A stretch of DNA of 24,000 bases from Trinickia terrae. GTDB lineage: Bacteria; Pseudomonadota; Gammaproteobacteria; Burkholderiales; Burkholderiaceae. The position numbers and the translations under genes were made by a program. Under the pieces are notes generated by a model, which saw nothing but the letters and a program-made list of their open reading frames with translations, was not told the DNA's origin and searched no databases. Positions 8,828-11,481 of the stretch are shown here, one piece after another (the stretch's first letter is position 1; each line of letters starts with the position of its first letter). Where the stretch lies: assembly GCF_005144415.1 (NCBI RefSeq), contig NZ_SWJE01000005.1, positions 324,134-348,133 on the forward strand, written 5' to 3'.

Positions 8828-9118
8828 GCGTTGTCTCTCCACATTTCGGGGGGCATTGCGGCGTTGCTGCGAGCGGCGGCTGACGTCGGGAATGCGCCGG
8901 CTCGTCGGCGGACGGCTAAGTGTGAAGAGACGGTAAGAAAATTATGTGAAACGTTTGCGGCGGGGATGTGATGACGATTGGCTTACGGTGGGGCTGGTTT
9001 TTAGGCGACTCCTCGTGGCTGTCTTCGCTATAAAAATCGCGGTGGCTCGGGAGCGTTTTGTCATTCGGATACTCGCGCGTTCGCAGCACGAACCGGCAGT
9101 GCGGAAAGACGGGCACAC

Positions 9119-9146
9119 AAGCCGACTCGCGAGGGTCGGCTTTTTT
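9119..9146. terminator. GC-rich hairpin with GNRA tetraloop and T6 tract, 18 nt downstream of the islet cassette stop
   Basis: GCCGACTC (9121-9128), loop GCGA, GAGGGTCGGC pairing back to 9140, flanked by AA (9119-9120) and TTTTTT (9141-9146). The U6 run is on the plus strand; on the minus strand the stem is followed by UUGUGUG. It is therefore likely bidirectional or insulating. Confidence 0.55.
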
Positions 9147-9163
9147 GTGCAACGGACAATGCG

Positions 9164-9439
9164 CTATCGAGACGAAGGCTTATTGATCGGTTCTTGTGTG
9201 ACGGACATGTACTGCTTGATGTCCGGCTGGCCGAGTGCAATCAGGTTGAGCATCGCAACCCCGAGCCGTCGCGCGAATTCGTCGTCGAGCTTGAAATCGT
9301 ACTCGTCGAGAAGAATCGGGATTTCGATCTTTCCGGCGACGAGTGGGGCCAACTTGGCGGGGTCGACGGTTTGCACCGTGAGTCTCTGGCGGTCTTCTGC
9401 GTAAGTTAAAACCACGGAATACGGCGGATGAGCTGCCAT
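9164..9439 (-). CDS. hypothetical 91-aa protein, translationally coupled partner of the upstream 265-aa ORF (candidate immunity/antitoxin-like)
   Basis: ATG 9437-9439 overlaps the upstream TGA (9439-9441) as TGATG. GAGG lies 6 nt upstream of the ATG. The translation is MAAHPPYSVVLTYAEDRQRLTVQTVDPAKLAPLVAGKIEIPILLDEYDFKLDDEF…, with an acidic patch and no signal peptide. I recognise no family. Confidence 0.6.
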   Translation of the reverse strand: MAAHPPYSVVLTYAEDRQRLTVQTVDPAKLAPLVAGKIEIPILLDEYDFKLDDEFARRLGVAMLNLIALGQPDIKQYMSVTQEPINKPSSR

Positions 9440-10236
9440 CAATAACCTCTGCACTGTTGATAGTTCTGAAATGCCTGCTGTTTGCATAGCGCGCTGCCGC
9501 GCGCACCGCCCATCGGGCCGCCAAGTGCATTGCACAAGTCCAGATCACGCTCGTACTGAGCAAAGCACTCCGCCTCATCTGCCTCGCTCACGCTGCGTGC
9601 AGCCAAGTCTTGCACATCGCCACCCGGCACGGATTCGCTGTACTGGAACGGTTGCGCGTCACCAAGCGGCGTTCCTGTTTTGGGAGAGTATGACGGCGTA
9701 TCAAGGTTCTGGGGAACGCGCGGTGCGTTGCCGTACAGCACCTGCGCAGGCGATGGCGTGTCGGATTGCCGTGGCGGGGCCGCTGGCACTTCCCGCTCTT
9801 TCCGGCTCTCCTGTATGGCCTTGACGCAGGCTCGCAGGTCGGCATGATCGGGTTCGAAGATCAGATCGCCGCGCTTCACCGCGTCGAGCACGGCTTGGGC
9901 GACTTGGCGCGTATCCATCTGCCAGATCGGAGGATGGTCGTCGAGGCGGGCGAGCAAGGCCCGCACATCGTGGTCAAAACACGTATCGGAGGTGCTCAGA
10001 CTGCTTCGAAGGAATGCCATCCGGGCCACCTTCATTGCCCGGGTAATGTCCTCGACTTCGCCGGAGGAGACTTCAGCGAAGTGCCTGTGAGTCCCAAAGC
10101 AATAGCATCGGGCCGGGTCGAACATGCGCGGATTCCGCACGCTCACGTAGATCGGTATCTGAACGCTTCGCCAGAAGAGATGGGTGTGCTTTCGGTTCTC
10201 GTAGTCGCTGTCGCAGTACGGTCCAAGATAAATCAT
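9439..10236 (-). CDS. hypothetical 265-aa Cys/His-rich protein: N-terminal globular region, Pro-rich linker, C-terminal twin CX10C motif
   Basis: This is a long ORF in a roughly 53% G+C region, where long random ORFs are unlikely. ATG at 10236 has GAGG 9 nt upstream; the in-frame TTG at 10272 is an alternative start. It has nine Cys residues and the motifs KHTHLFW and GTHRHF. The C-terminus is CFAQYERDLDLC-N15-CKQQAFQNYQQC. I recognise no signal peptide and no family. Confidence 0.7.
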   Translation of the reverse strand: MIYLGPYCDSDYENRKHTHLFWRSVQIPIYVSVRNPRMFDPARCYCFGTHRHFAEVSSGEVEDITRAMKVARMAFLRSSLSTSDTCFDHDVRALLARLDDHPPIWQMDTRQVAQAVLDAVKRGDLIFEPDHADLRACVKAIQESRKEREVPAAPPRQSDTPSPAQVLYGNAPRVPQNLDTPSYSPKTGTPLGDAQPFQYSESVPGGDVQDLAARSVSEADEAECFAQYERDLDLCNALGGPMGGARGSALCKQQAFQNYQQCRGY

Positions 10237-10284
10237 TCTCGGGAGCCTCGCCGTGGTCCGTTGTGTTTGCAACGATTATTGGCA

Positions 10285-10308
10285 GGCCGTCCGCAGAATG
10301 GCCGTCCG
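10285..10308. repeat. perfect 9-bp direct repeat GGCCGTCCG x2 with 15-bp period, upstream of the islet cassette
   Basis: Read directly: copies at 10285-10293 and 10300-10308. On the minus strand they sit just upstream of an AATAAT (-10-like) hexamer and about 50-70 nt upstream of ATG 10236. Confidence 0.5.
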
Positions 10309-10315
10309 ATGAGTC

Positions 10316-10341
10316 AGACTCGCTGCCAAAGGCACGAGTCT
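10316..10341. other. strong hairpin AGACTCG(C)TGCC-AAA-GGCACGAGTCT between bioB stop and islet cassette promoter (possible U-tract-less bio terminator or operator)
   Basis: An 11-bp stem with one bulged C and a 3-nt loop, read directly. It lies about 80-105 nt downstream of the bioB stop. There is no U-run on either strand. Confidence 0.4.
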
Positions 10342-10422
10342 TCGTCGGACAAAAGTCAAACAATGTTACGGCTGTGCGCTAGGCGGGCCGGGAAGCGTTA
10401 GACCAACCACTTCAAGCGGCGC

Positions 10423-11481
10423 TCAGTTCGCCGTCTTCGCCCGCTCGCACGTCTGCGCCGTTTCCACCGGCATCTGCTGCGCAGCCTCGGCGCGAATGCC
10501 GAGCCGCGCCAGCAGCGTGCGATCCTTCTGAGCCTGCGGGTTGCTCGTCGTCAGCAGCTGATCGCCGTAGAAAATCGAATTCGCGCCGGCCAGGAAGCAC
10601 AGCGCCTGCATCCCGTCGTCGAGCTGCTGGCGTCCCGCCGATAGCCGCACCACCGCCTTCGGCATCGTGATGCGCGCCACCGCGATCGTGCGCACGAATT
10701 CGAGCGGATCGAGCGGCTCGGTCTTTTCGAGCGGCGTGCCTTCGATCGCCACGAGGTTGTTGATCGGCACCGATTCCGGATACGGGTTCATGTTCGCGAG
10801 CTGCGCGATCAGGCCCGCTCGCTCGCGGCGCGATTCGCCCATGCCGATGATGCCGCCGCAGCAGACGTTGATGCCCGCGTCGCGCACGCGCTCGAGCGTG
10901 TCGAGGCGATCCTGGTAGGTGCGCGTCGAGATGATCTGGCCGTAGAACTCGGGCGACGTGTCGAGGTTGTGGTTGTAGTAGTCGAGCCCGGCGCCGGCCA
11001 GTTCCTTCGCTTGCGCATCTTCGAGCATGCCGAGCGTCATGCAGGTCTCGAGGCCCATCTCCTTCACGCCGCGCACCATCGCGGTCAGCGGCTCCATGTG
11101 GCGCTCCTTCGGATTGCGCCATGCCGCGCCCATGCAGAAGCGTGTCGCGCCGTTGGCCTTCGCGGCGCGTGCCGCTTCCAGCACCGTGTCGACGTCCATC
11201 AGTTTTTCGGCCTTCAGGCCCGTGTCGTGATGCGCCGATTGCGAGCAGTAGCCGCAGTCTTCTTCGCAGCCGCCGGTCTTGATCGACAAGAGCGTGGAGA
11301 GCTGGACGGCGTTCGCGTCGAAATGTTCGCGATGCACTTGCTGCGCGCGGAACAACAGGTCGTTGAACGGCAGGTCGTAGAGCGCGGCGACGTCCGCCAC
11401 GCGCCAGCGTGCCGGCGCGCCGGCGGCATTCGCGGCGCCTGCGGCAGCGTTCGTCGCGGTCTCGGCTTGGTGTTGGGTCAT
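10423..11481 (-). CDS. bioB: biotin synthase (radical SAM)
   Basis: Has the radical-SAM motif [13 protein letters not shown] plus …[10 protein letters not shown]… and …[11 protein letters not shown]…, typical of BioB. ATG at 11481 has AAGGA 8 nt upstream. The in-frame TTG at 11502 is less likely. Confidence 0.95.

Follow-up and report, generated by a model that had tools for sequence, protein, structure and literature searches.

What is the function of a 265-amino-acid protein of Trinickia terrae that lacks a signal peptide, ends in a short four-cysteine helical hairpin and is followed by an overlapping small gene? The question is raised by two genes, here called P0001 and P0002, in a 24,000-nucleotide stretch of contig NZ_SWJE01000005.1 (positions 324,134 to 348,133). 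This whole stretch is referred to as the window, and plain coordinates are counted from its first nucleotide. P0001 is modular: its 50-residue, four-cysteine hairpin is exchanged among different carrier proteins together with a co-evolving partner gene. Judged from the sequences, P0001 and P0002 probably form a self-contained polymorphic toxin/immunity cassette, in which the hairpin would be the warhead and the 91-amino-acid product of P0002 the antidote. The pair likely belongs to a new polymorphic toxin/immunity family of the Burkholderiaceae, toxicity being the property that we infer. The parts of the cassette are listed below; pLDDT, the predicted local distance difference test score, refers to an AlphaFold2 (AF2) model of P0001 that was built from 12 sequences.

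9439-10236, minus strand: candidate toxin gene P0001, 265 amino acids, with its ATG at 10236 and TGA at 9439-9441
9164-9439, minus strand: candidate immunity gene P0002, 91 amino acids, its ATG overlapping the TGA of P0001 (ATGA)
9787-10236, minus strand: 'type a' carrier domain, residues 1-150 of P0001, helical in the AF2 model (pLDDT about 80)
9667-9786, minus strand: Pro/Ser/Thr-rich linker, residues 151-190, with a conserved YGNxPRxPQNLDTP (pLDDT <50)
9595-9666, minus strand: junction (pre-toxin) motif LGDAQPFQY followed by SESVPGGDVQDLAAR, residues 191-214
9442-9594, minus strand: C-terminal hairpin module, residues 215-265
9565-9567, 9532-9534, 9484-9486 and 9451-9453, minus strand: codons of the hairpin cysteines C224, C235, C251 and C262, respectively

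The final 42 residues of P0001 (9442-9567) read C224-FAQYERDLDL-C235-NALGGPMGGARGSAL-C251-KQQAFQNYQQ-C262-RGY, the 15 residues between C235 and C251 (236-250) being a variable loop. Conservation was assessed on 189 family members that span both helices. The four cysteines are kept at exact spacing in 180 of them, which places the twin CX10C motif well beyond chance. The protein ends no more than five residues after the last cysteine in 188, most often as C-RGY. Between the helices, the loop measures 15 residues in 132 relatives and 13-18 residues in the others, and it is the most variable segment of the hairpin (2.28 bits; the helices score 1.38 and 0.97 bits). A single relative, P0103, has lost both C1 and C4; this joint loss is a hint from sequence of C1-C4 pairing, as would fit an antiparallel hairpin. 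In the AF2 model, helices extend over residues 218-237 and 245-262 (pLDDT about 85) with one CX10C pair on each, and residues 153-214 are disordered (pLDDT <50). On such continuous predicted helices, a single tetrathiolate metal site with CX10C spacing appears implausible.

A preliminary description of the locus, made from the letters of the window, had reported the 265-residue frame at 9439-10236, the twin CX10C motif at 9442-9567, the lack of a signal peptide, the placement of the two cysteine pairs on two helices and a flexible Pro/Ser/Thr-rich linker, and all of these are borne out. The start of the frame has one competitor, a TTG at 10272 (36 nucleotides upstream) that would give 277 residues, 12 more than the ATG; the 265-residue form is preferred because homologues start with MFYLG at the equivalent of the ATG. 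No hydrophobic signal-like stretch was found on reading the N-terminus. The description had also drawn attention to five further cysteines and to the histidine clusters KHTHLFW and GTHRHF in the N-terminal part. These residues are indeed present (C8, C44, C46, C86 and C137), but C137, in LRAC-V-AIQ, is the sole Cys or His of this part that is invariant among 11 aligned homologues, so that no functional weight can be placed on the Cys/His-rich character of this part. Metal binding by these N-terminal clusters was rejected as unlikely, as the residues are not conserved.

The hairpin behaves as a mobile module. A word-indexed search gave 66 relatives of P0001; about 10 are alike over the full length and most match only the last 29% or so. 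A profile built on the last 77 residues, run against 1.84 billion representative proteins (E <=1e-3), retrieved 172 proteins as clusters at 50% identity, nearly all of them 80-360 amino acids long and matching at the extreme C-terminus. Fusions of PAAR to the hairpin are found in the T. terrae genome itself (C6:43558-44193; PF05488, E=2e-11), in P0047 and P0050, and on a plasmid of P. graminis (L039). Small Rhs proteins (mini-Rhs; Rhs/DUF6531) with a clear Sec signal peptide carry it in P0202 and in L038 (on P. aromaticivorans pBN1), and an Rhs fragment with the hairpin is present in P. ultramafica (L022). Besides type a, at least four more unrelated-looking types of small N-terminal domain bear the hairpin. 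These small domains have little sequence in common; all of them close with a helix-Gly-strand element, AV(R/K)xGxLxxV, and profile-profile comparison (hhalign) of the last 70 or so residues of the carriers detected weak similarity between types a and b (E=2e-4) and between types b and c (E=1e-3). For the type a carrier, which terminates in AVKRGDLIFEP...LRAC137V, only about 12-14 relatives were found, and a search restricted to the N-terminal domain gave 3 proteins. The idea that the small carriers are pieces of larger Rhs or CdiA genes was considered and rejected, since their starts and lengths are consistent in more than 160 clusters. All named matches to the hairpin are from Paraburkholderia, Caballeronia, Trinickia or Burkholderia. 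A sample of 60 relatives comprised 36 genomes from the same family, of which 4 gave a hairpin match, and 24 from the order's other families, of which none did. As far as searched, the family is restricted to the Burkholderiaceae.

The point of exchange is marked by the junction motif, which in P0001 forms the boundary between the carrier and the swappable C-terminal module. Its consensus L-G-D-A-Q-P-F-E-Y (TPLGDAQPFEY) stands upstream of the hairpin in the small-carrier and PAAR forms alike. The motif was found in 234 of 319 other fetched proteins, followed by about 15 semi-conserved residues, its F being invariant by construction of the search pattern. Five classes of C-terminal module follow it: the hairpin in 147 proteins, a module of the form '...DHxHG..PHAHNW' in 64, and three others in 12, 4 and 3. 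All five are very small, the module proper amounting to about 50-75 amino acids. The type a carrier alone bears three different modules, those of P0013 and P0014 and the hairpin. In UniRef, one member of the '...DHxHG..PHAHNW' class is labelled 'Bacterial toxin 24 domain-containing protein', an Ntox24 label that hmmscan did not reproduce. Ntox24 is an RNase-type domain of polymorphic toxins (Zhang et al., PMC3482391). Carriers with exchanged modules, each with its own downstream open reading frame (ORF), are the signature of a polymorphic toxin system.

The small downstream gene follows the hairpin and not the carrier. At 22 of 22 loci with an intact hairpin, an ORF of the P0002 family starts between -7 and +1 nucleotides from the toxin stop, mostly through an ATGA overlap, and of 61 genomes the 5 in which the hairpin was found are exactly those in which the partner was found. 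Across 21 pairs, Mantel tests gave r=0.77 (p=2e-4) for hairpin versus partner identity, r=0.79 for the loop alone and r=0.10 (p=0.10) for the N-terminal carrier versus partner, values that are inflated, and whose significance is overstated, by the relatedness of the sequences. The flat N-domain control argues that the correlation between warhead and partner is not simply genome phylogeny. Clusters of partners group together hairpins from Rhs, type a and type b carriers. The T. terrae genome holds six mutually divergent cassettes (partner identity <=41%, loop identity <=40%), which by their sequences look like six specificity types rather than redundant copies. In another genome (G023; loci L040-L042), a frameshifted hairpin gene on C14 is followed by three tandem genes of the partner family, a small poly-immunity array (L040:1339-2666). 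Two orphan partner genes of the same genome lie downstream of carriers that now have another warhead, and at several loci a truncated or frameshifted toxin stands beside a full-length partner ORF. Immunity genes, unlike export chaperones, would be expected to show this coupling, co-variation, orphans and a tandem array. A chaperone role for the small ORF was accordingly rejected, orphan partners and tandem arrays counting against it. By sequence reading, no signal peptide is present in any partner examined, including one that follows a Sec-exported mini-Rhs. The AF2 model of P0002 consists of a beta-hairpin and helices (pLDDT 82); Foldseek against the Protein Data Bank (PDB) found no fold match for it, and searches of the partner brought up no DNA-binding domain.

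The cassette is mobile: it forms an insertion of 1.43 kb that brings its own upstream region along. The inserted unit comprises the following intervals.

8993-10424: inserted islet of 1.43 kb, flanked by the plcN-lipoprotein unit and the bioB stop
10237-10424, minus strand: non-coding upstream region of the inserted unit

The flanks of the islet (left to 8992; right from 10425, the bioB stop) lie 81 bp from each other in Trinickia violacea (G003) and 322 bp in G001; since they are near-adjacent in these two Trinickia relatives, the cassette is an insertion. The islet has no ORF beyond the two-gene pair, and G+C content is 0.597 over positions 9001-10000, compared with about 0.63-0.71 in most other 1-kb windows. 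Positions 10237-10386 are 83-84% identical in nucleotide sequence to the corresponding regions of two paralogues on contig C23 of the same genome, so that the upstream 150 nucleotides travel with the gene. T. violacea has its hairpin match elsewhere, at C1:3030413-3030643 (P0039 in CP040077.1 ends at about 3030646). Hairpin cassettes lie at prophage edges in T. violacea and B. ambifaria, and a B. pseudomallei prophage edge carries a type b carrier with another warhead. Other cassettes of the carrier family are found in islets with other toxin/immunity genes. A tblastn search of 50,697 phage records gave no match to the cassette.

A mechanism consistent with these results can be proposed. P0001 would be laid out as a carrier (residues 1-150), a disordered linker, TPLGDAQPFEY with about 15 further residues, and a swappable hairpin of about 50 residues with a loop of 13-18. 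The hairpin may act as a stoichiometric binder, and thereby inhibitor, of a conserved essential target in the cytoplasm of the recipient; binding is more likely than catalysis or pore formation because the hairpin is tiny and polar, and the target would be cytoplasmic because the immunity protein, as read from its sequence, is cytoplasmic. P0002 would neutralise the hairpin by direct binding, with the variable loop as the main specificity determinant. The cysteines most likely pair as C224-C262 and C235-C251, and the hairpin would be stapled in oxidising compartments (periplasms and the extracellular space). As some carriers are Sec-exported and others are fused to PAAR, the hairpin must survive such compartments, which points to a staple role for the four cysteines. 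The staples would be re-reduced in the cytoplasm of the target cell. Delivery would be contact-dependent: sister warheads would ride on type VI secretion system (T6SS) PAAR spikes or on mini-Rhs proteins with a Sec signal, and P0001 and the other small-carrier versions might be loaded non-covalently as T6SS cargo through the N-terminal domain. For P0001 itself, T6SS cargo is a plausible, tentative assignment that falls somewhat short of an even chance. A more elaborate proposal, that the twin CX10C hairpin is a complete, non-enzymatic, redox-gated mini-toxin, must be regarded as rather doubtful: disulfide-stapled in transit and unlocked by reduction, it would block a cytoplasmic target, with immunity specificity set by the loop, and Burkholderiaceae-specific small carriers would plug it into the T6SS or another export route via AVxxGxLxxV and LGDAQPFEY.

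Several points weigh against the toxin/immunity cassette and its delivery as outlined. No PAAR (PF05488), Rhs, MIX or other known trafficking domain was detected in P0001 with Pfam and NCBIfam. The nearest T6SS genes lie about 88 kb away from the cassette, and 17 related loci, searched for vgrG, tssC and a separate PAAR gene but not for hcp or adaptor genes, have none of the three within 8-10 kb. A partner without signal peptide fits poorly with a disulfide-dependent action that takes place in an oxidising compartment. No precedent was found for a 50-residue acidic hairpin as a complete toxin domain. The overstated significance of the Mantel tests and the hmmscan result on the Ntox24 label belong on the same side. 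The T. terrae genome does contain an unusually large T6SS arsenal, with 5 tssC, about 9 vgrG and 6 PAAR genes.

Set against these points, the polymorphic-toxin organisation with a coupled small ORF that the preliminary description had proposed is upheld by the 22 of 22 loci, the co-variation and the orphans. Its expectations that the C-terminal cysteines would be conserved and that the module would recur on other N-terminal domains are likewise matched, by the 180 of 189 relatives and by the PAAR, Rhs and at least four other small types. Contact-dependent secretion, as suggested there, holds for the paralogues with PAAR or Rhs and does not extend to P0001, which has neither domain and lies far from T6SS genes. 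The target periplasm, to which delivery had been assigned, is disfavoured as the site of action because the partners examined have no signal peptide.

That last property also bears on the strongest rival, which keeps the same toxin/immunity pair and dispenses with the T6SS. The small-carrier forms would be soluble bacteriocins of the colicin/S-pyocin type that are released by lysis; receptor binding would fall to the N-terminal domain, and import to the disordered linker and junction motif. Colicins and S-type pyocins have no signal peptide, consist of a carrier, a disordered segment and a cytotoxic C-terminal domain, and are encoded with a coupled immunity gene; their toxin modules are common to T6SS and Rhs systems. 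P0001 resembles them in having no signal peptide, in its three-part layout with a long disordered segment and in its translationally coupled partner, which, being without signal peptide, implies import of the toxin across the target envelope. The lack of T6SS genes (vgrG, tssC and separate PAAR) near the 17 loci and the three carrier-family cassettes at prophage edges, two with the hairpin and one with another warhead, also favour this explanation. However, the identical junction and warhead are fused to PAAR, a spike tip specific to the T6SS, and no colicin, pyocin or lysis-protein family was detected with Pfam, NCBIfam or PHROGs. The phage records contain no match, and the copy in the window is outside any prophage. 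P0001 thus differs from colicins and S-pyocins in having no domain homology to them, no lysis gene, a 50-amino-acid warhead and PAAR-fused siblings. Release as a bacteriocin is therefore considered unlikely, and the likelihood left over for P0001 after T6SS cargo and this route falls to some other means of delivery.

An intracellular toxin-antitoxin or abortive-infection module, in which the N-terminal domain would sense a phage cue and free the hairpin and P0002 would be the antitoxin, is improbable. It would account for an overlapping two-gene cassette that is a passenger of islets and prophages; toxin-antitoxin genes adjoin some of the loci, and Ntox24-type domains occur in toxin-antitoxin systems too (PMC3482391). 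The warhead is, however, fused to PAAR and to Sec-exported Rhs, which are export contexts, and orphan immunity genes and a poly-immunity array fit conflict between cells; in addition, PADLOC, PHROGs, Pfam and NCBIfam gave no matches, and the partner has no detected DNA-binding domain. Least probable of all is a secreted metal or redox module, or an anti-eukaryote effector that mimics CHCH proteins of the mitochondrial intermembrane space, with the partner as a chaperone of the reduced state: the four near-invariant cysteines with CHCH-like spacing, a partner that is cytoplasmic by the reading of its N-terminus and the known T6SS-secreted metal-binding proteins of Burkholderia would suit it, but six divergent pairs, loop-partner co-variation, orphans and a tandem array are hallmarks of immunity proteins rather than chaperones, the slot of the hairpin is filled in other proteins by alternative modules (one of them UniRef-labelled as a toxin domain, not reproduced by hmmscan), and from the AF2 model four thiols on one metal would be implausible with CX10C on continuous helices.

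How does the proposed toxin/immunity family compare with known systems? Scans with Pfam, NCBIfam, PHROGs and PADLOC gave no match for P0001 or P0002; significant domain matches were confined to the sister proteins (PAAR and RHS/DUF6531). A PDB sequence search returned noise only, Foldseek against the PDB gave nothing with E <1 for the model of either protein, and literature searches found nothing on the motifs GDAQPF, DAQPFEY and QQCRGY or on bacterial effectors with twin CX9C motifs. Polymorphic toxin/immunity systems are well known, and the hairpin, the partner family, the junction motif and the small carriers match nothing in the libraries and papers searched. The family is like PAAR/Rhs polymorphic toxins (PMC3482391) in its variable C-terminal module, interchangeable carriers, immunity gene directly downstream, orphan or displaced immunity genes and conserved junction at the swap point, and some members carry PAAR or Rhs themselves. 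It differs in that P0001 and most relatives are only 200-350 amino acids long, with small N-terminal domains that match no trafficking domain, and in that the LGDAQPFEY junction is not among the described pre-toxin motifs.

Likeness to CHCH proteins, to which the hairpin had been compared at the outset, holds in part. The CHCH (twin CX9C) helix-turn-helix proteins reside in the mitochondrial intermembrane space, for example Cox17 and the Mia40 substrates. As in these, there are two helices, each with a pair of cysteines about three turns apart, and the predicted antiparallel hairpin would make C1 face C4 and C2 face C3. The resemblance ends with one cysteine pair per predicted helix: the spacing is CX10C, there is no Pfam match, no sequence match and no significant fold match, and the P0001 hairpin is bacterial, forms the C-terminus of a putative toxin and has an immunity partner. 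The cytoplasm-entry domains of CdiA-CT toxins are small helical bundles with structural disulfides that precede a separate nuclease domain. The hairpin is comparable as a small alpha-helical cysteine module, with putative disulfides, that would cross the periplasm on its way to the cytoplasm; unlike the entry domains, it is terminal and itself co-varies with immunity. The Serratia effectors Ssp2 and Ssp4 have their site of action, and their immunity proteins, in the periplasm, in contrast to P0002 with no signal peptide, and the redox role of the P0001 hairpin is only proposed. These two T6SS effectors are reported to need DsbA in the target cell and so provide a precedent for disulfide-dependent activity after delivery (PMC5792426).

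If confirmed, the family would bring to interbacterial warfare a new, CHCH-like toxin fold and, with it, an immunity family and a junction motif that are likewise new, the motif showing where warheads are exchanged, as well as a set of small carrier domains. To our knowledge, the hairpin would be the smallest modular warhead. Members of the family abound in Burkholderia, Paraburkholderia, Caballeronia and Trinickia from soil and plants; this abundance and the six divergent cassettes in one genome suggest that the family may shape kin discrimination and strain competition in the rhizosphere. So small a hairpin would ease identification of its target, structural work on the complex of hairpin and immunity protein and dissection of loop-based specificity, and the putative cysteine staple would offer a direct handle on the redox gating of a delivered toxin.

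Further observations concern the carriers and their surroundings. The mini-Rhs proteins of L038 (6820-9459) and P0202 are stand-alone proteins of about 790 amino acids with DUF6531, a few YD repeats and a hairpin end, followed by the partner gene; they constitute an unusual small, Sec-routed class of Rhs. The linkers of type b carriers (P0016, P0029 and P0049; L009:7836-8234) have a second conserved motif, GFDWLGAVExAAGALLGG, in whose place P0001 has YGNxPRxPQNLDTP. This motif is glycine-zipper-like and reminiscent of the Tde1 translocation motif (PMC10240207). A 215-amino-acid paralogue of the type a N-terminal domain (40% identity) is encoded at C7:285491-286138 of the T. terrae genome; it has neither the junction motif nor a C-terminal module that can be recognised, and a short, helical-looking tail forms its end.

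In the same genome, two decayed P0001 paralogues form a tandem array (C23:519045-521959). The first copy has an in-frame TAA and another C-terminal module (GNNQAQNKQF...), followed by a different ORF of about 160 amino acids. The second has a TGA and a frameshift and has kept the hairpin, followed by a full-length P0002 homologue. The two copies are separated by a 47-amino-acid duplicate of the upstream gene's 3' end, which suggests insertion by duplication of the target site region. A further hairpin cassette (C2:389108-389884) lies between two secretion-like genes (C2:387500-391500), one with a weak match to a CesT-like type III chaperone (PF05932, E=5e-4, below the cut-off) and one that is secretin-like by eye. 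In Paraburkholderia sp. RAU2J, an islet adjoining the RNase G gene contains several carrier-type genes (L037:8403-13701); DUF4279 proteins, possibly the immunity family that belongs to a different class of warhead, follow two of these.

One more feature of the islet in the window lies just past the stop of P0002.

9119-9142: G+C-rich hairpin with a 10-bp stem, a probable terminator of the two-gene unit

A T-run follows this hairpin on the plus strand only, where no gene ends, and the minus strand continues only with GUGUG; the structure may act in both directions.

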